10,772 nucleotides of DNA, taken from UHGV virus genome UHGV-1443384; one strand, given 5' to 3'. This DNA comes from a virus. Below are positions 1,432 through 10,393 of this stretch, in pieces; position 1 is the first letter of the stretch, and every line of letters starts with the position of its first letter. The notes below the pieces were generated by a model, which saw only the letters and a program-made list of their open reading frames with translations, did not search any database and had not been told where the DNA came from. A program made the translations under genes and the position numbers.

Positions 1432-1974
1432 TTACTCGCCTTTGTTCTCTAGCAACTTCTCAGGCGCGTTTCCGGTAGTTTCCATCAGGTAATCAGCCAG
1501 TATCTGTGGCAGGTTTTCGTCAAGTCTTGCACATGCGTTACATGCTTTGGCTATTTCCCTTTTTAGTTCATCCAGCATATACGGCCTTATATCGGGAAAG
1601 CGCCTTTGCATTGTGAGCGGGAGGCTGTCCATGATTGATGAAATCTGACTCGCTAGTTTTGAAATCGCGTAGATGCAAAACTTTGTATCAATCACCTCGC
1701 CGCGTTCGCGCTCGTTTTTAAGTTCCTGCGCTTCCGCCTGGGCCGTCATTAATCTGATTCTTACGCGTAAAAGTTCATCATCATCAATCTCGCCTTTGTC
1801 GTTTGTAAGCTGGTTAATTGCATTGTTAACCCTATTGTCTATCACGCTAGCAACATCATAAAACGCCTCACGGCCTTTACGCTCAACGGGAGTTACTCCC
1901 CACTTGTCGAACGCTGTCGCACTTACGCGGCAGCTTTGCGCCATAGTTTTTTTGTTCATCAGGTGCGATTTCAT
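1432..1974 (-). CDS. Terminase small subunit, lambda Nu1-like (satellite TerS / packaging-redirection candidate)
   Basis: C-terminal two thirds align with lambda Nu1 (ours RLMTAQAEAQELKNERERGEVIDTKFCIYAISKLASQISSIMDSLPLTMQRRFP vs lambda RLTRAQADAQELKNARDSAEVVETAFCTFVLSRIAGEIASILDGLPLSVQRRFP). The N-terminal DNA-binding part is diverged. Start chosen at the ATG preceded by GGGGA; the track ORF extends to 1986. Confidence 0.85.
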   Translation of the reverse strand: MKSHLMNKKTMAQSCRVSATAFDKWGVTPVERKGREAFYDVASVIDNRVNNAINQLTNDKGEIDDDELLRVRIRLMTAQAEAQELKNERERGEVIDTKFCIYAISKLASQISSIMDSLPLTMQRRFPDIRPYMLDELKREIAKACNACARLDENLPQILADYLMETTGNAPEKLLENKGE

Positions 1975-2001
1975 CAATATCCCCACTTAGTTAAGGTTTC
2001 A

Positions 2002-2150
2002 GGTTGGTGTGTTGGTGTTATCTTTCCCTTTTTATTCATAGAGATAGAGCGAAAAACAAAACCACCACCACCAACCCGAAAAGGCTCATAAATAGCGAAA
2101 ATCCGCAAGGTCGCCGCCCCGTAGCCTGCCGGATCGCCGGAAAGGACCCG
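2002..2150 (-). other. Lambda-type cos site (cosQ-cosN-I1 conserved, cosB-like repeats diverged)
   Basis: Minus strand reads cgttctggctggcgggtcctttccggcgatccggcaggctacg GGGCGGCGACCT tgcggattttcgctatttatgag, near-identical to the lambda right end, the 12-nt cohesive end (plus 2108-2119) and the start of the left end. Inverted ACCACC/GGTGGT-rich repeats at 2002-2019 and 2060-2077 replace the lambda R sites. Confidence 0.85.
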
Positions 2151-2175
2151 CCAGCCAGAACGGGCCCTAATTTCA

Positions 2176-2520
2176 TCAACCAATCAACTTATTGCGTCCT
2201 TTCAGGGCATTACGCCTGGCGCGTTCAATCTTGAGGCATAACGCCGCATCAGGTTTTTCGGGGGTGGGAACAAGGCAATAATTTGATGCGCGCGGAATGT
2301 TGTTAATCCACGCAACAACCTCGCTTAAATACCATGCCTTGCGCCCTTTCGTAACCTGTACGCGTTCGGGGAACTCTCCGCGAGCCTCAAGGTTTAGCAA
2401 TGTGCGACGGCTAAGGGTTGTAAGCTCCACTACCTGATCCATATCAACAAGGCGCTCGCTTAAACTCATTTTGTCATCGATATCTAATAGCTCTCGTAGC
2501 TGACTATCTCTTTCAATCAT
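2176..2520 (-). CDS. AlpA-family HTH DNA-binding protein (114 aa), second copy in the element
   Basis: Motif VVELTTLSRRTLLNLEARGEFPERVQVTKGRKAWYLSEVVAWI fits the phage AlpA / excisionase-type HTH pattern. RBS GAGGT; start overlaps the stop of the upstream gene. Confidence 0.65.
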   Translation of the reverse strand: MIERDSQLRELLDIDDKMSLSERLVDMDQVVELTTLSRRTLLNLEARGEFPERVQVTKGRKAWYLSEVVAWINNIPRASNYCLVPTPEKPDAALCLKIERARRNALKGRNKLIG

Positions 2521-2529
2521 TCTCGTACC

Positions 2530-2871
2530 TCACACACGTGCCAGCGGCTGAACAGAAATACCTGAGCCAACAAACGCAGCAACTTTTGCTGATAGTTGTG
2601 TTACAGACTCAGGCCAGTTCAGAGCATCAACATTTAAGACGCCGGTTTTATAAACCTGAGCCTGCGTTTTTGTCGCTGTATCGATTTGTACAGCGGAAAC
2701 ATAAACAGCTTTGCCTGCGCTCGTTCCATCCCATACCACCAGTGCACCAGTTGCATCTTCTTGCATCAGTGGCGTAAATGCAGGAATTACCCCTTTATTA
2801 GCTGAAAATATCCCCAACGTAGTAACCAGTGCTTCAGTGCCAGCCATGAGTTCAGTGTAATGAGTAGCCAT
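2530..2871 (-). CDS. Head decoration protein, lambda gpD-like (113 aa)
   Basis: Aligns with lambda gpD (TPLM...LVVWDGT...YKTG...WPE...AAFVGSGISV vs TPLM...LVAWDGT...YKSG...WPE...TAFAGTAISIV). Strong RBS GGGGGAG; 9 bp after the capsid gene. Confidence 0.8.
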   Translation of the reverse strand: MATHYTELMAGTEALVTTLGIFSANKGVIPAFTPLMQEDATGALVVWDGTSAGKAVYVSAVQIDTATKTQAQVYKTGVLNVDALNWPESVTQLSAKVAAFVGSGISVQPLARV

Positions 2872-2880
2872 TGCTCCCCC

Positions 2881-3921
2881 TTAACCAATGCGAACGGTAA
2901 CAAAACGATTGATGCGGGCCGGTATTGGTTGCGGTGCGCTGTGCGTCTGTACATATTCAATAGCCGGATCACCTGGTACGATGTAATTTTTCGGCGCAAG
3001 TTCGGCTTTAGTCAGCCCCATTCTGATTAACTCAGGATCCTGAATGCCACCGTAGGCAACGATGCCCTGTAATGATGTGTTGCCAAGCACCATCAAATCA
3101 GGATCAAGGAAATATTTTTCTTTGCCGTCCTCGTCGGTATAACGTCCGCTATATACCACAATAGCAACATCGCCAACGTAACCCTTGAAGCTTACAGAAT
3201 CCCCAAGATTTTTCAGGGCCGTTTCAAGAACGGAATTAGATCCCCGTCGAGTATCAAGGCAATCTTTTACTGCTTTAAAGGCGCGGTATTTTTTCCATAC
3301 GTTGCGGCCCATTACGATGATATTTGTAGTACCTTCGCTGATTTCTGCGTACTCTTCGATGTCATCGTTTGGATCAAATGTTGATAAATCTCTACCGCTC
3401 CACTCCGTGCCGCCGGACTGCGTGATAATATTTTGTGGTTTTATATTCCAGTCCAGTTCATAACGTTCAATTCCATCACCTTCAATGATATTTTTCCCCG
3501 TTGTAACCGCCTGAACAGCAAGCCACTCAATACGCGCACGAATTGCCTGCGCTTGTCTTACTAACGCTCGCTTTATTTTGAAACTGCGTGATGAATATGC
3601 ATTGAATTGTTCAGGTGATACGCCTGGTTGACGAACGGCTATTTTATTTGGGTCGATACTACTTTTTGGCTTCATATAGCCAGGGCGAATTACTTTTGAT
3701 TCGTAGCCTTCATCGCGTGAGACTTTACTACCAACCATAGGGGAACAAAATGCAGCCATCGGGATGTCTGGATCGTCAATAATATCAAGCGCAATATCCC
3801 GCGTCTCAAATGTAACGACTCGCTTAAAAAACAGGTTTATAAATAAAGAATTAATCTGCCATTGAATATCTTCGGCATTAACAACCTGTATTAACATGGC
3901 TGGCGAATATAAATCACTCAT
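2881..3921 (-). CDS. Major capsid protein, lambda gpE-like (346 aa)
   Basis: Collinear similarity to lambda gpE over the full length (NIITQSGGTEWSGRDLSTFDPNDDIEEYA vs NNITQSGGTEWSKRDKSTYDPTDDIEAYA; FKAVKDCLDTRRGSNSVLETALKNLGDSVSFKGYVGDVAIVVYSG vs FKAVKEKLDTRRGSNSELETAVKDLGKAVSYKGMYGDVAIVVYSG). RBS AAGAGG. Confidence 0.9.
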   Translation of the reverse strand: MSDLYSPAMLIQVVNAEDIQWQINSLFINLFFKRVVTFETRDIALDIIDDPDIPMAAFCSPMVGSKVSRDEGYESKVIRPGYMKPKSSIDPNKIAVRQPGVSPEQFNAYSSRSFKIKRALVRQAQAIRARIEWLAVQAVTTGKNIIEGDGIERYELDWNIKPQNIITQSGGTEWSGRDLSTFDPNDDIEEYAEISEGTTNIIVMGRNVWKKYRAFKAVKDCLDTRRGSNSVLETALKNLGDSVSFKGYVGDVAIVVYSGRYTDEDGKEKYFLDPDLMVLGNTSLQGIVAYGGIQDPELIRMGLTKAELAPKNYIVPGDPAIEYVQTHSAPQPIPARINRFVTVRIG

Positions 3922-3973
3922 ATAACCTCTTAATACTTAGTAAAAGTGTCGCGTTAATTTTATCATCTGCCTT

Positions 3974-4002
3974 GTTTGGCATCTTTATGCATTGCTATGC
4001 AA
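3974..4002 (-). promoter_or_regulatory. Candidate promoter of the capsid-cos-TerS operon with a 13-bp palindrome in the spacer
   Basis: Minus strand TTGCAC-17-CATAAA (weak -10, suggesting activator dependence). Palindrome ATTGCtatGCAAT at 3981-3993 lies in the spacer. Confidence 0.3.
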
Positions 4003-4106
4003 TAGTGTGCAAAGTTTCAATCTTCGTTTATTTATCCGGCGTTACGTGTCATTCTGTACAGCGTTACAAGTTCAAAGACATAAATTATTCTCTTTGGTGA
4101 TGAAAG

Positions 4107-4132
4107 GGTCGGAATATTCCGGCCTTTTTTTT
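4107..4132 (+). terminator. Rho-independent terminator, plus strand (stem GGTCGG/CCGGCC followed by T8)
   Basis: Hairpin 4107-4124 followed by tttttttt at 4125-4132. Implies a short plus-strand transcript originating in 3950-4100. Confidence 0.55.
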
Positions 4133-4149: not shown

Positions 4150-4177
4150 CAACTGATAAAAGCCGGATTGCTCCGGC
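4150..4177 (-). terminator. Rho-independent terminator for the ssb transcript (minus strand)
   Basis: Minus strand hairpin GCCGGAgcaaTCCGGC followed by TTTTATCAGTT, 17 nt after the ssb stop. Confidence 0.5.
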
Positions 4178-4193
4178 CTCTGTTACTCGTTGC

Positions 4194-4616
4194 TTAAAAC
4201 GGTATGTTATCCCCGTACGGATCATCATTTCCCGCCTGTTGTTTTGCCCTGTTCAGCGCGTCAGTAGCCTGGCCCTGTTGACCTTTTTTGCCGCCCGGTT
4301 GCGCCGTTCGCGCACTGATTACGCTGTCTGCAATAACCTGCCAGCCCTGCCGCGTTTCCCCGTTCTGGCCTGTCCACTGGCTCACCTGCATGTTACCCGC
4401 CACGCTCACCAGTTCGCCTTTGTGGTGTTTTGCCAGTGCGTCGGCCTGTCTGCCAAACGCCAGGACAGATAACCACATCGTCGCCGTTCCGTCATCTGCC
4501 TGGCTGCACGGCAGGGGAACCGCCATACTCGCCATCGCCATTTGTGTCCCTTTGCTGGTGGTCTTTAACTGCGGGTCAGCCACCAGCCGCCCGTAAGCCG
4601 CTATCTGTGCTGTCAT
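4194..4616 (-). CDS. ssb: Single-stranded DNA-binding protein (SSB-like OB fold, 140 aa)
   Basis: N-terminal YGRLVADPQLKTTSKG and WLSVLAFGRQAD fit the SSB OB fold. Gly/Gln-rich linker and acidic tip DDPYGDNIPF resemble the SSB C-terminal DDDIPF tail. Confidence 0.75.
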   Translation of the reverse strand: MTAQIAAYGRLVADPQLKTTSKGTQMAMASMAVPLPCSQADDGTATMWLSVLAFGRQADALAKHHKGELVSVAGNMQVSQWTGQNGETRQGWQVIADSVISARTAQPGGKKGQQGQATDALNRAKQQAGNDDPYGDNIPF

Positions 4617-4904: not shown

Positions 4905-5131
4905 TTCACCTGTTCACCTTTTGAGATTTTCCCTTTTTATTCATAATGTTAAGGGGTGAACAGTTTCACAAAAACTATTCACCAACTGTTCACCACTGTT
5001 CACCCTTAAAGCTCAATAAATAATCAAAAAGGTGAACAGTGAATAGTTTGGTGAACAGTTCACAAATAACTGTTCACCATATAATATACTGATATAAAAG
5101 ATATTTATAACAGGGTGAACAGTGGTGAACA
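4905..5131. repeat. Replication origin with P4 alpha-type iterons (about 10 copies of TGTTCACC / GGTGAACA, both orientations) and AT-rich unwinding stretch
   Basis: Octamers at 4911, 4955, 4987, 4998, 5031, 5050, 5071, 5114 and 5124, plus partial copies. AT-rich block at 5080-5110. Immediately downstream of the primase gene. Confidence 0.8.
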
Positions 5132-5145
5132 GTTATTCCATAAGT

Positions 5146-6963
5146 TTAATTTTTGCTGTCGTCATTTGTGACCGATGCACATGATGGCATCCAGTCTTCT
5201 GAATCCTCTGTCAGTGTCACATTTGAACGCAAACCGTGCTTCGTTTTCCGTTTTATATACTCCCTGCCATATTCCGCCATTGCCCCCGGCATATCTTTAC
5301 CGAAGCGCGTCAGTGTTACAGGTTTACCGAATCCGTGTGCCCTCATATATGCCAGATAGGCGTGATAAAGATACCTGCGCGGACTGAACGGAATAATTTC
5401 GGCATTACCCACTAACAGACCATCACACATTACCGACGACATGAGATAGCCACAGAAGTCCACCAGCGAATCGCCCTCGCGTTTTATCACCAGAGCTTCT
5501 TCTGATTTCTGCTGCTCATACAGCAGGCGTTTAGCTTCGTCCTGGTCAGAAAAACGAGTAAGCAGATGGCGAATCACAACCGCCAGCTCTCCTTCTATTT
5601 TTTCTGCCAGCATGGGGTCGCGCTCGTTCTCCGGTACAACCTCCGAAAAATTGAATATCACCCGACGACGTGAGATCCCCCCGCTGCGGTCACTGAATGA
5701 CATGGCGTTATTGTTCACCGCCAGCACGACCGCCTGAATGCGTGTTGAGTAGGGGGCTTTATGCTTCGGGTCGATTGCCACCTTGTCACCGCCTGTAATA
5801 GCCTTAATTCCTGCGCCATCACCAGCGTAGCGGGTCATATCCGGCATGATAATCAGCGAAAAGCCAACCACTAACGCGCGTTCCCTTGCATCTTCCAGCG
5901 CCTTCATGCTTGCCGATACTGTGTTGGCCTTACCCGCCAGCATGGTGCAAATCTCCGCCATCACGCTTTTACCACTTCCCCCTGGACCTGTTACCTCAAT
6001 GAATAACTGCCAGTCGTACCGGTTCGCCAGCACCATGAATAATGCAGCCAGCACGCGATCCGTCTTGCGGTCATTCTCTGCCACCGAGCAGCGTAACCAC
6101 TTCCAGAAATTCGGCGCATGTGTTGCCAGCGTTTCCCCCTCTGCTGGTGGGCTGAAAGGTAATTCACTGGCAATTAACAACCAGTCGTTTTTGTTATGCT
6201 CCCGAAAATTACCTGTTCTGGTATCAAATACCCCGTTACTGAATCCAATCAGGTTACGGGCTGTATTCCCCATTACAGGCAAACTTAACTTCATGGTATC
6301 GACCGCCGATTTAATGGCGTTCTGCGAATAGCTGATCTCCGCATCAATGAAAATCTGTGCCATAGCTCGCTGTAATTCTTTATCCTGTACTGGCTCCCAT
6401 ACAACGCCGTTGTAATGGTGAACAGTGTCAGAGTCAGCATGAATCGCCAGTTCACCGCCATAATGTGCCAGGAGAACTTCGCCGCGTTGACTTGCTCCCA
6501 TCTGGTTAAGCGCCAGTGATGAAGCGTTATCGTCTTTTACCCGCTCTTTTTTCTTTACAGGCAGTTCAACTACCTTTTTCTTTTCCGTCAGCTCTCCCCG
6601 CTCACGTTCCAGATATTCGCGCCAGTTCTCCCGTTTCTGGCTGTGCATTCCTTCAGGGTAATAATCAGCATCCCTGACACCTGCCGCTGCCAGTTTCTGC
6701 CCGATGGTATTAACAAGCCCCGGACGCAATAACCCCGCCTGATAGAGACGCACGCGATAGCGTCCGTCCGGTACGATTTGCAGGTTGTCCAGTTCGGCAA
6801 GTTGTTGCTCTCCAAGCCAGACAGGTGGCACGTTATCGCCAGCCAGTCGCCCGTCCTGTTCCTGCCACTGTTTCGCATGTGCCCACGCATCACTACCCGC
6901 AAAAATGATGACTTCCGTCATTTTGTCACGCGGCTGGTGTTTTAAATTTGGCGCTTTTTTCAT
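5146..6963 (-). CDS. DNA primase/helicase, P4 alpha-like (PICI pri-rep type)
   Basis: Walker A motif VTGPGGSGKSV in the central region; large size; adjacent TGTTCACC iterons. Start set at the ATG (6963) preceded by GGAGAG and overlapping the upstream stop; the track ORF begins at GTG 6978. Confidence 0.85.
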   Translation of the reverse strand: MKKAPNLKHQPRDKMTEVIIFAGSDAWAHAKQWQEQDGRLAGDNVPPVWLGEQQLAELDNLQIVPDGRYRVRLYQAGLLRPGLVNTIGQKLAAAGVRDADYYPEGMHSQKRENWREYLERERGELTEKKKVVELPVKKKERVKDDNASSLALNQMGASQRGEVLLAHYGGELAIHADSDTVHHYNGVVWEPVQDKELQRAMAQIFIDAEISYSQNAIKSAVDTMKLSLPVMGNTARNLIGFSNGVFDTRTGNFREHNKNDWLLIASELPFSPPAEGETLATHAPNFWKWLRCSVAENDRKTDRVLAALFMVLANRYDWQLFIEVTGPGGSGKSVMAEICTMLAGKANTVSASMKALEDARERALVVGFSLIIMPDMTRYAGDGAGIKAITGGDKVAIDPKHKAPYSTRIQAVVLAVNNNAMSFSDRSGGISRRRVIFNFSEVVPENERDPMLAEKIEGELAVVIRHLLTRFSDQDEAKRLLYEQQKSEEALVIKREGDSLVDFCGYLMSSVMCDGLLVGNAEIIPFSPRRYLYHAYLAYMRAHGFGKPVTLTRFGKDMPGAMAEYGREYIKRKTKHGLRSNVTLTEDSEDWMPSCASVTNDDSKN

Positions 6964-7259
6964 TTCTGCTCTCTCCACGCGGCAATCATGTTTTTCAGTT
7001 CCTGTAGTTTTTTATCAACATCCATACATGACACATGGTTATTTCTGGAAGGCGGGATTTCCCGCCGGAATCTGCTAATAAAGATCTCCACGTTCAGCGA
7101 ACTATGAAATGAATAGCCATCACGAATAAAATACACACGGTCAAACATCAGTTCTTTTACCGTTACTCTGTTACCGTTCTTATCCAGATAAATAGCGCCG
7201 GGGATAATTTTGGGGTGTGCATAACCGCTGGCAGTCAAGCCAGATAAATATGTTCTCAT
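6960..7259 (-). CDS. Hypothetical protein (99 aa), coupled to the primase
   Basis: Track ORF; TGA stop overlaps the primase ATG. Occupies the position of the small genes upstream of alpha in P4-like elements. Confidence 0.55.
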   Translation of the reverse strand: MRTYLSGLTASGYAHPKIIPGAIYLDKNGNRVTVKELMFDRVYFIRDGYSFHSSLNVEIFISRFRREIPPSRNNHVSCMDVDKKLQELKNMIAAWREQK

Positions 7260-7265
7260 GATTAT

Positions 7266-7586
7266 TTATCCCCGATTTGAATCAGTATTCGCTTTCTTTA
7301 TGGCATTTAATGCATCTGTGGTATTTTCAATGGTGCACCGTAACGAAATATCAAACTGCCCAAGCATTGCCAGTAACAAACCGATATTACCCATATCAAT
7401 GCGCATGGCCTTTTCGTCATAGTCCTCATTTTCTGACGCATGCCACATCAGGCTACCAATTGACGCAATACCCATTGATATATTGTCAGTAGCCCCATCC
7501 GCAGCGGAATAAACCTTTTTAGCAATATCATGCTCACAGTTAAAATGCGGATTAATCAGGTACTGGTAATTTGACATATCAGGCAT
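7266..7586 (-). CDS. Hypothetical protein (106 aa)
   Basis: Track ORF; strong RBS AGGGGG before the ATG at 7586; acidic protein. Confidence 0.55.
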   Translation of the reverse strand: MPDMSNYQYLINPHFNCEHDIAKKVYSAADGATDNISMGIASIGSLMWHASENEDYDEKAMRIDMGNIGLLLAMLGQFDISLRCTIENTTDALNAIKKANTDSNRG

Positions 7587-7782
7587 GGCACACCCCCTGA
7601 CGAATACGGGCAGCGAATACCATCACGCAGCCAGCCGGAGATTGCTGGCGTGCTTCCTGTTCGCTGGTGGCCTCAATGGTAATCACGCGCGGTTGTGCCG
7701 TGCTCAGGGCGATAAAACGCCAGATGTATTTATTCAGGTTGTGCGAGTCCCGCCCTTGCGGGTGTGTGGTATGATTTCTCAT
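7579..7782 (-). CDS. Small protein (67 aa), possibly Icd-like (host cell-division inhibitor family); first gene of the primase operon
   Basis: Internal ATG at 7782 with RBS GAGGTA within the spurious 359-aa track ORF; stop overlaps the next start. C-terminus ...SPAGCVMVFAARIRQGVCHA recalls Icd-like proteins from memory only. Confidence 0.4.
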   Translation of the reverse strand: MRNHTTHPQGRDSHNLNKYIWRFIALSTAQPRVITIEATSEQEARQQSPAGCVMVFAARIRQGVCHA

Positions 7783-7880
7783 AGCTACCTCGATACTTTC
7801 GCTATCGTTGGTGGTTAGACGCCCTGCATGTGTTGCGAGCACTGCGGGGCGTTGCTTAATTTGAGTGACAAAACTCAAAC

Positions 7881-7959
7881 TGTGCGCACAGATTAAAATC
7901 ATGTGTGCGCACATGTCAATACTTAACATCTCATTTTTTTTGCTGTATTGTGTGCGCCC
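7881..7959. promoter_or_regulatory. Divergent promoter/operator switch: TGTGCGCACA palindromes at 23-bp phasing overlapping back-to-back promoters
   Basis: Perfect TGTGCGCACA at 7881-7890 and 7904-7913 (inside the 16-bp palindrome catgtgtgcgcacatg), half-site at 7950-7959. Minus strand TTGACA-17-TTTAAT has one operator in its spacer and one at the start site. Candidate plus promoter TTAACA-17-TATTGT. Confidence 0.5.
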
Positions 7960-7987
7960 ATAAAGTCCATTTAAGTGAGGTGCATCA

Positions 7988-8185
7988 ATGTCTAGCGGTA
8001 ACACAAACAACAAATCAGCAAAGAAAAATATTCGATTCCCACATGAGCTTATAGATGGGATTGATGCCAGCGTTGAACAAGAAAAATTAACTAATCCTAG
8101 TGCTAATTTTTCCGCATGGGTCTTAGATGCCTGTGGACGCAAATTAAAATATGAACAGCGCCGGAAGGCCAAAGAATCAGAATAA
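7988..8185 (+). CDS. YlcI/YnfO-family (DUF3950-like) small protein, possible ribbon-helix-helix regulator (65 aa)
   Basis: Strong RBS GTGAGGTG. Motif NIRFPHELIDGIDASVEQ...NFSAWVLDACGRKL resembles E. coli prophage YlcI/YnfO proteins (NIRFP...NFSAWV..AC.RRL), recalled from memory. Confidence 0.55.
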   Translation: MSSGNTNNKSAKKNIRFPHELIDGIDASVEQEKLTNPSANFSAWVLDACGRKLKYEQRRKAKESE

Positions 8186-8242
8186 TCACTATCAGCGCCG
8201 TGGTGTGAGTAACTACGGCGCATTGCTATGCAGGGCAACACA

Positions 8243-8416
8243 ATGACCGATAAAGAATTGACCAAAACATTATCACCGACACGGAAAAGACGGCGCAGAA
8301 AGATAGAGCATGAATCAGAAAGATTCGCACCTTGTTCGTTTGCTCTTGAGAAATTCCTTAAAGAGCGCAGGAAAAAACTCTCGTTGCAAACCTTGGAACG
8401 AACCGAATCTGACTGA
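8243..8416 (+). CDS. Hypothetical highly basic small protein (57 aa, RKRRRRK tract)
   Basis: Downstream of the YlcI-like gene in the same orientation; operon ends at the terminator at 8481-8508. Weak RBS; the start could be the ATG at 8228. Confidence 0.35.
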   Translation: MTDKELTKTLSPTRKRRRRKIEHESERFAPCSFALEKFLKERRKKLSLQTLERTESD

Positions 8417-8480
8417 TCAAATTGCCCACCAGCCAGCAAATCGCTATGATGTTCGGGCTTATGTTTAGTGTTTTCCCATT

Positions 8481-8508
8481 GGCGACCGCCCCCGGTCGCC
8501 TTTGTTTT
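8481..8508 (+). terminator. Rho-independent terminator, plus strand (GGCGACC gccccc GGTCGCC followed by TTTGTTTT)
   Basis: 7-bp GC stem with T-rich tail, between the plus-strand two-gene operon and the convergent alpA. Confidence 0.6.
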
Positions 8509-8527
8509 ATGTGTCATATGCTCCCCT

Positions 8528-8737
8528 TTACGCTGCCTTTCCTGAATTAATGCGATCCCGGCTTTTAACCCATTCCATAACCTCAGACTTAACCCAGCCA
8601 ACCGAACGACCTCCAAGACTGATACGGGAGGGAAAGCGGCCTTGTTTTTCCATCTCATAACGAGTTGTACGGCAAACGCCTGTTAGCTCTCTGCATTCTT
8701 TTTCACGGATTACACGATCTTCATTTATTTCGCGCAT
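8528..8737 (-). CDS. alpA: AlpA-family transcriptional regulator / excision-associated HTH protein (69 aa)
   Basis: Motif RVIREKECRELTGVCRTTRYEMEKQGRFPSRISLGGRSVGWVKSEVMEWV fits the AlpA pattern. Start taken at the internal ATG (8737); the track ORF extends to GTG 8821. Lies downstream of int as in PICI and P4-like elements. Confidence 0.75.
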   Translation of the reverse strand: MREINEDRVIREKECRELTGVCRTTRYEMEKQGRFPSRISLGGRSVGWVKSEVMEWVKSRDRINSGKAA

Positions 8738-9154
8738 AAAAAGCCCTACATAAAATTTACGTATAGAAATTTTTGTTTCGCTGTGGATATACGGGAAGGA
8801 ATACTTCTTAGCTTTTTTCACCTCTTAAATTGAATACGTAACCTTTCTGAACTTTATGTTCGTCAAAGTTCGCTAGAGTTTGCTGCTGTTCATAAAATCG
8901 TGTCACGAGTTTTTAAGCGACGCAACAAAAAATGTCGTCATTTGGTATGATACTTGAATTATCTTATTAAAAACAAATAGATAAACCATCAGGTGTTGGA
9001 ATAATCAAGAAACAGAAAATAAGAACTCAGAAGAAGATATTTCAATTTTTTCGATGGTTGACACATATAAAGTGAAGATATTTGCAGATATTTTCCGATA
9101 TTCTACGATTTATTCACGGCTGTAATCTCTTAAAGAAAAAACAGCCGTAATTTG

Positions 9155-10393
9155 TCAAGAATTTTGGGTGTAAATTCGCGGGGTCATAACAACGATTTTT
9201 TCATCATTGTTCTGGAGAAGCTCGAGACGGTCTACCCATAGATTAAGAGCATCACGTTTTGCATCAAGATAGCGGGAGTGGTTATAGACTCGTTGCATCC
9301 CTGGCATCTGGTGGGCTGTAAGCTGCTCGACAATATGCGGATCCACGCCTAAATCGTTCAGCATGGTTGTAAATGTGTGCCGGATATCGTGTAACGTCCA
9401 GGGGGCTTGATTAATTCGTCTGTGCGCTGTTCTTCCGTACTCTGCTACCGAAGATTGTCCTTTCAGTTCACCAAGCAATAAGCCCGTGTGTCTGTTCTGC
9501 TCCACCAGCTGCGTGATGAACGGCAAAATGCTTTCCGGTATTGGCCTGAATATGGCGACCTTCGTTTTGCTGTGCTCCTTCGGTACCGTCCAGAGCATTT
9601 CTTTAAAATCCCACTCCTGCACCTCAGAGCGCCTTAGCTCGGTGGTACGGCATCCGAAAACAATCAGGAGGCGAATTAGGGCGCTGTAGTACGGCGGGAA
9701 TATTTTGTCATCCAGGGCGCGGAGTAATTCCCCAAGCTCCTTGTTTGTTAGTACGCGCTCGCTCACTTCTGCTTTTTTTCCCACATCACCGACAACCATA
9801 TCATCAAGAACGTTGCTGATTGCGTATCGTCGTTTTCGGCAGTACTTAAGCGCCTGTTTACATACCTGTAGCAAAAATCCGGCAGATACTGGGCTTCGCT
9901 TTGCCATCTGGTCAAAACATGCCAACCAGTGCCGTAGCTCGCATTTTTCCAACGGCATAGCGCCAATCTGGCTGATTATGTGTTTATTGATCCGGCTTTT
10001 CAGTGATTCGTAGTCAGTGCGCTTTTCCTTTGCATACGATTCAAGCCAGTAAGTGAGCGCTTCCTTAACTGTCACGGGGGCTAACGCATCCTGTACAGCA
10101 CGATTAAGCTCATAGCGCGGATTTTTCCCCTCAGCCAGCCAAGCGCGACACTGTGCCGCTTTTTCCCTGGCTGCTTTCAGGCTCAGATCGGGATAATTGC
10201 CCAGTCTCAGACGTTCCGGTGATACCTGCCTACCAGTTCCAGCCCTGTAAGTGAAATACCAGGTTAACAGGCCGCTGGTGGAATGTCTTACGCTAAGATT
10301 GCCACCGTCATTAAAAAAGGCGTTTTTTGTGGTTGGTGATCCGCTTAATTTTCGTAAAAGAGTGTCGCTAAGTCTATGAATTGCGCTGCTCAT
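9155..10393 (-). CDS. int: Tyrosine site-specific integrase, P4-type (412 aa)
   Basis: C-terminal catalytic motifs WTLHDIRHTFTT (H-x-x-R) and RVYNHSRYL (catalytic Tyr); size and N-terminal arm-binding-type region typical of the P4 integrase family; adjacent to the attR arm repeats. Confidence 0.9.
   Translation of the reverse strand: MSSAIHRLSDTLLRKLSGSPTTKNAFFNDGGNLSVRHSTSGLLTWYFTYRAGTGRQVSPERLRLGNYPDLSLKAAREKAAQCRAWLAEGKNPRYELNRAVQDALAPVTVKEALTYWLESYAKEKRTDYESLKSRINKHIISQIGAMPLEKCELRHWLACFDQMAKRSPVSAGFLLQVCKQALKYCRKRRYAISNVLDDMVVGDVGKKAEVSERVLTNKELGELLRALDDKIFPPYYSALIRLLIVFGCRTTELRRSEVQEWDFKEMLWTVPKEHSKTKVAIFRPIPESILPFITQLVEQNRHTGLLLGELKGQSSVAEYGRTAHRRINQAPWTLHDIRHTFTTMLNDLGVDPHIVEQLTAHQMPGMQRVYNHSRYLDAKRDALNLWVDRLELLQNNDEKIVVMTPRIYTQNS

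Follow-up and report, generated by a model that had tools for sequence, protein, structure and literature searches.

The stretch of DNA considered here (10,772 nucleotides, about 10.8 kb; hereafter the window) comprises an entire phage satellite of the Gram-negative PICI type, whose core genes are all on the minus strand. It is a relative of EcCICFT073, the PICI worked on by the Penades laboratory (PMC6092414, PMC6739421). A typical E. coli PICI has a single AlpA gene (PMC11773190); the present element encodes two proteins of this family, the second from within a block of late structural genes that abuts the cos site. The question raised by this locus is what an AlpA-family DNA-binding protein does in such a place. 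A preliminary description of the window had offered two answers, namely that it is the late activator of a capsid/TerS operon, in the manner of the Delta and Ogr proteins, or that it takes part with TerS in the recognition of cos. PICI satellites of this element's family are common, and their capsid and decoration genes are their least understood part.

The second AlpA-family gene and its surroundings

The element sits between clpS and cspD and is found in 79 of 5,426 complete E. coli genomes; a sister cassette occurs in 365. Along the minus strand, the integrase gene (9155-10393) is followed by that of the canonical AlpA (hereafter AlpA#1; 8528-8821; PF05930, E=1.6e-17), which is the integrase-proximal PICI regulator and has a shorter RefSeq form of 69 aa. 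A DUF4222 protein and a D5-type primase are encoded further on (5146-6978, minus strand), with nine origin iterons of the form GGTGAACAGT (4907-5134) directly after the primase gene, and the SSB gene (4194-4616, minus strand) is listed beside that of an 81-aa protein. A 93-aa protein is a further gene of the element. The capsid cassette comprises genes for a λ gpE-like major capsid protein (2881-3921; PF03864), a λ gpD-like head decoration protein (2530-2871; PF02924) and a 114-aa protein, ORF114 (2176-2520), all on the minus strand. Beyond it lie cosQ (GGGTCCTTTCCGG, 2137-2149) and cosN (ACGGGGCGGCGACCT, 2108-2122), both on the minus strand and nearly identical to those of λ, and then a small terminase gene, TerS (1432-1986, minus strand). 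Rfam and tRNA scans of the window gave no match, and no NCBIfam model fits any of the element's small proteins.

The preliminary description had placed a second AlpA-family HTH gene between the decoration gene and cos, and both the identity and the position hold. ORF114 begins with an ATG 9 nt past the stop codon of the decoration gene, and its stop codon is 26 nt from cosQ. Its Shine-Dalgarno sequence GAGG (2527-2531, minus strand), read directly from the sequence, overlaps the TGA stop of the decoration gene, and the two genes are therefore probably translationally coupled. In Pfam, the sole match of ORF114 is Phage_AlpA (PF05930; E=8.7e-8, 32.4 bits against a gathering cutoff of 21), which spans residues 23-72 of the protein and positions 2-51 of the 51 positions of the profile. 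The protein also matches phrog_2790, labeled 'excisionase and transcriptional regulator' (E=1.3e-37), and the RefSeq entry for the identical gene is a helix-turn-helix transcriptional regulator (WP_000572593.1). With AlpA#1 of the same element it shares 30% identity over 53 aa. Searches recovered 101 homologues of ORF114, and every one whose source is named comes from Enterobacteriaceae; all full-length homologues carry a precomputed PF05930 match. A tblastn search of deposited phage genomes with ORF114 found no homologue, and the gene is therefore specific to satellites. Among 15 representatives, which are 48-96% identical, 36 columns are invariant. Conservation is strongest in the HTH and in a basic C-terminal tail, and the recognition helix TTLSRRTLL remains invariant down to 48% overall identity.

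The only PDB entry matched by the ORF114 sequence is 8c3t, the AlpA-family excisionase of GIsul2 (E=5e-10); no other solved structure is matched at E-values up to 10. The AlphaFold2 model (mean pLDDT 75, core pLDDT 84-89) predicts an N-terminal helix (residues 2-20), a winged helix-turn-helix with its wing (27-73) and a conserved basic C-terminal helix (92-106), the core consisting of helices 27-34 and 38-47, strands 54-57 and 60-64, and a helix 65-73. The best Foldseek matches of this model are excisionases and winged helices of the BldC/MerR type (8c3t, 8dgl, 6ama, 4j2n), including GIsul2 Xis, RdfS, Pukovnik Xis and BldC, and its superposition on 8c3t has a target-normalized TM score of 0.83, with an rmsd of 1.1 Å and 44% identity over 52 columns. 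ORF114 is thus predicted to adopt a winged helix-turn-helix fold, and both its sequence and this predicted fold place it in the AlpA family. Excisionase and BldC-type winged helices (Xis, RdfS, BldC) polymerize cooperatively, in a head-to-tail fashion, on tandem direct repeats; BldC itself is a developmental regulator of Streptomyces and unrelated to phage.

To see what accompanies the gene, about 90 loci were compared from E. coli, Enterobacter, Citrobacter, Kosakonia, Kluyvera, Cedecea, Buttiauxella and metagenomes, a search of genome contigs having added four useful ones. Throughout, the capsid gene is followed by the decoration gene, the ORF114 homologue and cosQ, in this order. Many of the ORF114-bearing elements interrupt the capsid gene of a lambdoid prophage and are helper-embedded PICIs as described by Tommasini et al. 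(PMC10111431). A further 80 capsid cassettes are of the EcCICFT073 type, with a capsid protein about 55% identical to that of the window and an unrelated 137-aa protein in the slot of ORF114.

A phased repeat array upstream of the capsid gene

The preliminary description had singled out positions 3974-4002 as the capsid promoter region, and a conserved repeat array does overlap this segment. In the window the array, a candidate operator (3977-4013, minus strand), consists of four direct repeats at an exact 10-bp spacing: TTTGCAC (4007-4013), ATTGCAT (3997-4003), AATGCAT (3987-3993) and a degenerate GATGCCA (3977-3983). Three to four such repeats are present in the aligned regions upstream of the capsid gene, where their consensus is (A/T)TTGCA(C/T), here abbreviated TTGCAY. 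Three occurrences of TGCAY at exactly 10-bp spacing are found once in the window against an expected 0.02, and 200 shuffles yielded no array of comparable score. Across nine lineages the information content is highest at the hexamers and lower in the spacers between them. In L006 the repeats are TTATAC-like and the recognition helix of ORF114 is unchanged, which leaves the definition of the motif loose (TTRYAY). The variants TTATAC and TTGTAC also occur mixed within single arrays, which makes an attempt to match repeat variants with changes in the protein uninformative.

The array is present in every lineage with ORF114 (92 loci, with 32 distinct upstream sequences), that is, in all intact cassettes, and at each locus it occurs once, always upstream of the capsid gene. 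The sole locus with the array and without ORF114 (L088) has a truncated decoration gene. Conversely, the 80 cassettes of the EcCICFT073 type have neither ORF114 nor the array. No array was detected in phage λ or in the CFT073 region, and in a 42-kb stretch of helper prophage plus satellite the only one was that at the embedded cassette's own promoter. Likewise, no TTGCAY array is present at cos, near int, in the att regions or at the element ends. The capsid proteins of all array-bearing cassettes are at least 72% identical, and the comparison effectively involves two independent cassette lineages, one with both array and ORF114 and one with neither; the link between the two could thus mirror the shared descent of a single cassette rather than function. 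An EcCICFT073-type cassette without a promoter of its own was considered and rejected, as upstream terminators and a different control region are found there.

The array was also considered as a replication origin, and this was rejected: the element has its nine iterons at 4907-5134, and the array is distributed independently of the replication modules, as versions of the primase, SSB and 81-aa protein that are at least 90% identical accompany array-bearing and array-less cassettes alike.

On the side of the replication genes the cassette is bordered by an intrinsic terminator after the SSB gene (4156-4178, minus strand; GGCCGGAGCAATCCGGC followed by UUUUAU; dG -18.4 kcal/mol, z = -3.95), with a second, weaker hairpin at 4107-4132. 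A hairpin with a T-run lies upstream of the array and after the replication genes in every lineage, and the terminator is predicted to insulate the capsid cassette from the replication operon. On the other side of the array, sequence conservation across lineages points to a candidate extended -10 element of the form TGnTAnnAT (TGATAAAAT, 3957-3965, minus strand), from which a transcription start near 3950 is predicted. No -35 hexamer is present 16-18 bp from this element, and a consensus scan of the cassette promoter for a canonical -35/-10 pair found none. Counted by hand, 38-39 bp separate the second repeat from the TG of the extended -10 in the window and in elements of the L003 type, and 48-49 bp separate them in L009-L012. 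These two spacing classes are one helical turn apart and so keep the same helical phase, which is what one would expect of an activator site. The window belongs to the short-spacing class, in which the degenerate fourth repeat lies near the position of a -35 element, an arrangement that is compatible with repression as well.

Proposed control of the capsid operon by ORF114

The cassette thus reads, in order, intrinsic terminator, four phased TTGCAY repeats, extended -10 without -35, capsid gene, decoration gene and ORF114. We propose that ORF114 is an AlpA paralogue turned into a dedicated regulator of a portable capsid cassette, and more specifically we give about an even chance to its being a cassette-specific positive autoregulator that acts on the capsid-decoration-ORF114 operon through the phased array and is primed by read-through. 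Co-distribution suggests that ORF114 binds the array, while the geometry of the promoter argues for activation rather than repression. Several ORF114 molecules would bind the 10-bp-phased repeats head-to-tail on one face of the DNA, at roughly -40 to -70 relative to the start site, and would there recruit or stabilize RNA polymerase at a promoter unable to fire well alone. As ORF114 is the last gene of the operon that it would activate, the result would be a positive feedback loop. Its first molecules might come from read-through of the upstream terminator, fed by AlpA#1-driven transcription or, in helper-embedded copies, by Q-antiterminated late transcription of the helper; the loop would then lock the expression of capsid and decoration proteins on, late in the cycle. 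The earlier suggestion of a late activator of the capsid/TerS operon therefore survives for its capsid half, where a conserved array that co-occurs only with ORF114 stands upstream of an extended -10 without a -35. TerS is not a constant member of the regulated unit: its gene is situated past cos, is exchanged from one element to another and is frequently missing.

Were this activation to hold, the element would have a further level of control beneath the master regulator AlpA, with a dedicated autoregulatory switch for the satellite capsid proteins and a defined 37-bp operator. It would also explain how the cassette moves as a unit while the adjoining packaging module is exchanged to match helpers, and could provide a compact, orthogonal activator/promoter pair for synthetic PICIs. 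No new principle would be involved, as there are precedents both for autoactivators of the AlpA family and for late activators in satellites.

The same array might instead serve negative autoregulation, with ORF114 capping or silencing the cassette, for example in the uninduced state. A regulator encoded within the operon that it controls is common among autorepressors. In the window and in L003-type elements, moreover, the fourth repeat is about 11-12 nt upstream of the extended -10 TG and so overlaps the -35 region, and in L028-type sequences TTCGCA-16 nt-TAGCAT can be read as a weak σ70 promoter overlapping the last repeat. The well-conserved repeats, however, are upstream of the -35 position rather than over the -10 or the start site, and in the long-spacing lineages the promoter has no -35 at all. 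Spacing classes that differ by one turn matter for activation and not for occlusion, a steady capsid expression limited by an autorepressor makes little biological sense in a silent satellite, and the paralogue AlpA is an activator (PMC6092414). On balance we regard repression as unlikely.

It is also conceivable that the array is bound by another factor, such as AlpA#1 or a host or helper protein, and that the target of ORF114 is elsewhere, for instance at helper or host promoters. As noted, the co-occurrence of ORF114 and the array may be linkage inside one cassette lineage. Because the scan demanded at least three phased units, it would also have missed isolated single sites. Against this, elements with the same array have AlpA#1 proteins with three different recognition helices, or an HTH_17 protein in place of AlpA#1, and the replication proteins do not track the array either. 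In the lambdoid helpers no late activator is known to work at single head genes, in line with established λ biology. Of the proteins that go with the array in every case, ORF114 alone has DNA-reading residues that are invariant, and the activation of its own operon through this array is accordingly preferred to another binder, which seems to us rather unlikely. The specific version in which the TTGCAY array is the site of the canonical AlpA is unlikely too, since the helix of AlpA#1 varies and the array does not, and a different array lies beside alpA#1. This second phased array, four copies of ATATC at 10-bp spacing (9077-9111, minus strand; no equal in 200 shuffles), is located between int and alpA#1 and is a candidate site for AlpA#1 or the integrase.

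A broader scenario keeps the self-activating late-expression cassette and lets it move as a block among chromosomal and helper-embedded PICIs, ORF114 having arisen from a duplicated AlpA of a helper-embedded PICI and binding the attP arms too, so as to couple excision of the embedded satellite to the onset of capsid synthesis. ORF114 and the AlpAs of helper-embedded PICIs have in common an ELTTL start of the recognition helix, and the attP-arm motif of these elements, TGTATTGCA (PMC10111431), resembles the array unit ATTGCAY; together these two likenesses suggest that ORF114 might bind at attP arms. Taken as a whole, this scenario is quite unlikely. The doubled attP motif TGTATTGCA was rejected as a required site of ORF114, as each occurs without the other: helper-embedded PICIs lacking both ORF114 and the array (L207, L222, L283) have the doubled motif, and it is absent from the window.

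The resemblance of TGTATTGCA to ATTGCAY also bears on a role for ORF114 as a recombination directionality factor, serving the element's own integrase or acting across on excision of the helper prophage. Among solved structures, excisionases come closest (GIsul2 Xis, 8c3t, and RdfS), the PHROG label includes the word excisionase, and the second AlpA of EcCIMP1 is dispensable for excision of that PICI and supports excision of its helper (PMC11773190). The gene context in EcCIMP1 nevertheless differs, with the opposite strand and no structural genes nearby. In the present element ORF114 is about 6.6 kb from int, the sole TTGCAY array is about 5 kb from int and the element ends, with none at the att regions, and a canonical AlpA is already present beside int. 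Together with the independent occurrence of the doubled attP motif, this renders a directionality factor decidedly improbable. Xis-type excisionases act at att together with the integrase, while the array is promoter-linked.

Very improbable is a function as a packaging accessory factor that would act at cosQ/cosB, alone or with the satellite TerS, and steer the helper terminase as Rpp does. In every case the 3' end of the ORF114 gene is immediately upstream of cosQ, no DNA in the vicinity is better conserved than cosQ and cosN, and TerS and Rpp have winged-helix DNA-binding domains of the same general fold, a TerS domain (7lw0) being a weak Foldseek match of the ORF114 model. The adjacency to cosQ emphasized in the preliminary description is real, but it reflects the order of modules: similarity to phage DNA starts exactly at cosQ, which marks the ORF114-cosQ junction as a module boundary and sets cosQ and cosN (2108-2149) in a neighboring module outside the regulatory unit. 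In the window, position relative to cosN and comparison with PMC9026076 identify a candidate cosB, GGTTGGTGGTGGTGG (2062-2076) with its inverted partner CACCAACACACCAACC (2002-2017), both on the minus strand, and these are the probable sites of the element's own TerS. That 184-aa protein was considered as an Rpp and rejected as such, being a full-length homologue of λ Nu1 (37% identical over residues 10-170, Nu1 residues 3-180). Beside the ORF114 gene in other elements, cosB is of the λ type in some and of the GGTGGTGG type in others, with at least three types in all; the TerS beyond cos is 36-100% identical to that of the window or absent. The sequence of 73 loci reaches far enough past cos to tell, and a Nu1-like TerS is present in 42 of them and missing from 31. 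In all these settings ORF114 has the same recognition helix. Conversely, the 80 EcCICFT073-type cassettes, all without ORF114, include 39 with a Nu1-like TerS and 19 with RppA. ORF114 has no sequence similarity to RppA, no TTGCAY array is present at cos, and the same cosQ and cosN work in λ and EcCICFT073 without such a protein (PMC6092414, PMC6739421). The suggestion that ORF114 recognizes cos jointly with TerS is thus unsupported, because the cosB/TerS module is swapped or missing independently of ORF114, which appears to travel with the capsid genes and not with the packaging-specificity module.

The AlpA of Pseudomonas aeruginosa has, besides its HTH, a segment that inserts into the RNA exit channel. 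A processive antiterminator of this kind, or of the phage Q kind, by which ORF114 would load onto RNA polymerase at the cassette promoter and carry it past downstream terminators into cos, TerS and beyond, might be suggested by the clear intrinsic terminator between ORF114 and cosQ in L007 and L012 and by the N- and C-terminal extensions of ORF114 outside the HTH, but is hardly to be expected, given that the hairpin after ORF114 in the window is insignificant (z = -0.6), that many elements have no gene to read into, that four phased repeats upstream of -35 look like an activator/Xis-type filament site rather than a single promoter-embedded loading site, and that no antiterminator complex is among the top 50 fold matches or the PDB sequence matches, in libraries whose antiterminator content is unconfirmed.

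Relation to known regulators of satellites

A parallel in gene order comes from P4, in which delta is a late activator encoded within the sid-delta-psu operon that it activates, an operon that also specifies capsid-modifying and decoration proteins; this corresponds to the capsid-decoration-ORF114 order. Delta of the satellite P4 and Ogr of its helper P2 are zinc-finger proteins. ORF114 has two cysteines in its 114-aa sequence and an AlpA/Xis-type winged helix without a Cys4 zinc finger, so that the analogy with Delta and Ogr drawn earlier is one of proposed function and not of homology. The layout of the cassette is compatible with self-activation. Trans-activation of helper late promoters is unlikely, as no array is found in λ or in the helper prophage.

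With the AlpA of EcCICFT073, ORF114 has in common the family (PF05930), the PICI setting and the small winged helix. AlpA in PICIs switches on the promoter of the operon from which it is expressed (Fillol-Salom et al. 2018, PMC6092414). ORF114 differs from it in having N- and C-terminal helical extensions and in being encoded at the 3' end of a late capsid cassette rather than beside int, and its candidate operator has another motif and belongs to a separate, terminator-insulated transcription unit. In geometry this operator, a head-to-tail array of one-turn spacing, is like those used by the Xis/RdfS/BldC-type proteins.

The Rpp and TerS proteins (Fillol-Salom et al. 2019, PMC6739421; Murialdo and Feiss 2022, PMC9026076) resemble ORF114 in being winged-HTH proteins encoded by cos in the same satellite family. 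Their genes are downstream of cosB, whereas ORF114 is upstream of cosQ, and ORF114 is present or absent regardless of the type of Rpp, TerS and cosB. BLASTP of ORF114 against RppA gave no alignment at E-values up to 100, and no Rpp structure is among its PDB sequence matches; an identification of ORF114 as Rpp was rejected on its lack of RppA similarity and its position on the wrong side of cos.

The alpA_1 gene of EcCIMP1 (Pick et al. 2025, PMC11773190) is another instance of an E. coli PICI with an additional AlpA-family gene whose role differs from that of the master regulator. This gene lies at the distal end of an element without structural genes, on the opposite strand, and is reported to aid helper excision. 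ORF114, unlike alpA_1, is predicted to be co-transcribed with capsid genes and has a promoter-linked array. Tommasini et al. placed all Phage_AlpA proteins under 'integration' (PMC10111431), and our literature search found no paper on a late-zone AlpA of a capsid cassette. The canonical alpA genes have phased direct repeats of their own: in EcCICFT073 a six-unit ACAAC array adjoins alpA in the same place as the ATATC array of the window, and both fit a pattern of one array per AlpA paralogue.

ORF114 and the phased arrays

ORF114, the 114-residue AlpA-family protein encoded between the decoration gene and cosQ (2176-2520, minus strand), lacks 13 N-terminal residues that are present in most members of its family, as revealed by alignment with the 127-residue homologues. 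Because translation of either form begins some 10 nt beyond the decoration gene, the difference between them is an internal deletion and not the use of an alternative start codon. The shorter form is widespread, being encountered in 275 contigs.

Helper-embedded PICIs carry a doubled attP-arm motif, TGTATTGCAnnnTGTATTGC (e.g. L095, 13345-13372 and 23832-23860; also L003, L006, L009 and L012), which has the core ATTGCA in common with the TTGCAY array at the capsid promoter, the candidate operator of ORF114. In the helper-embedded PICIs with this motif the integrase-proximal paralogue, AlpA#1, is approximately 40% identical to ORF114, and the recognition helix begins with ELTTL in both proteins. 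The shared core, together with the likeness of the recognition helices, may be a trace of the common descent of both protein-site pairs.

A second phased array, comprising four direct repeats of ATATC in 10-bp phase, is situated between int and the canonical alpA gene (9077-9111, minus strand), and an analogous array of six ACAAC units is found just after int in EcCICFT073 (L176, 8186-8245). Both arrays are candidate sites for AlpA#1 or for the arm-binding of the integrase, and each has a motif of its own. Terminators also precede the capsid cassette of the EcCICFT073 type: the segment upstream of its capsid gene (L176, 14231-14440) holds a different control region where the TTGCAY array would be, and just before the first ORF there is a terminator-like hairpin with a 14-bp stem followed by a T-run. 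The EcCICFT073 capsid genes appear to be under a different kind of control.

Small terminase and cosB

The TerS gene of the window PICI (1432-1986) encodes a full-length homologue of lambda Nu1 (37% identity) in place of an Rpp, and the similarity extends into the C-terminal region, which binds TerL in lambda. In the candidate cosB of this element (2002-2076), GGTTGGTGGTGGTGG occupies bp 46-58, counted from the cohesive end, and is accompanied by an inverted partner; in EcCICFT073 the sequence at that distance is CACCACCACCAC, but in the opposite orientation. Taken together, the Nu1-like TerS and the layout of cosB suggest that the helper TerL is redirected by the satellite TerS, rather than by an Rpp-TerS heterodimer.

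Replication region and doubtful gene calls

Directly 3' of the primase gene (4907-5134), the sequence GGTGAACAGT(T/G) is repeated at least nine times, on one strand or the other; these repeats are almost certainly the iterons of the satellite's replication origin. The window has an intact SSB gene (4194-4616), but its counterpart in L001 (7195-7617), the closest complete-genome copy (99.4% identical), is annotated as a pseudogene with an internal stop.

A 69-residue hypothetical protein annotated in RefSeq (1974-2183, minus strand) spans cosQ, cosN and cosB and overlaps both flanking genes; it is probably spurious, because the sequence of this region is swapped wholesale among relatives. A mechanically called ORF of 359 residues (7579-8658, minus strand) is absent from the annotation of the near-identical RefSeq copy. 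Three other genes are annotated there: an Icd-like gene, which shares the strand of the core genes, and, running in the other direction, a YlcI/YnfO gene and one for a small hypothetical protein. The zone is the 'Bro/immunity zone' of PMC10111431.
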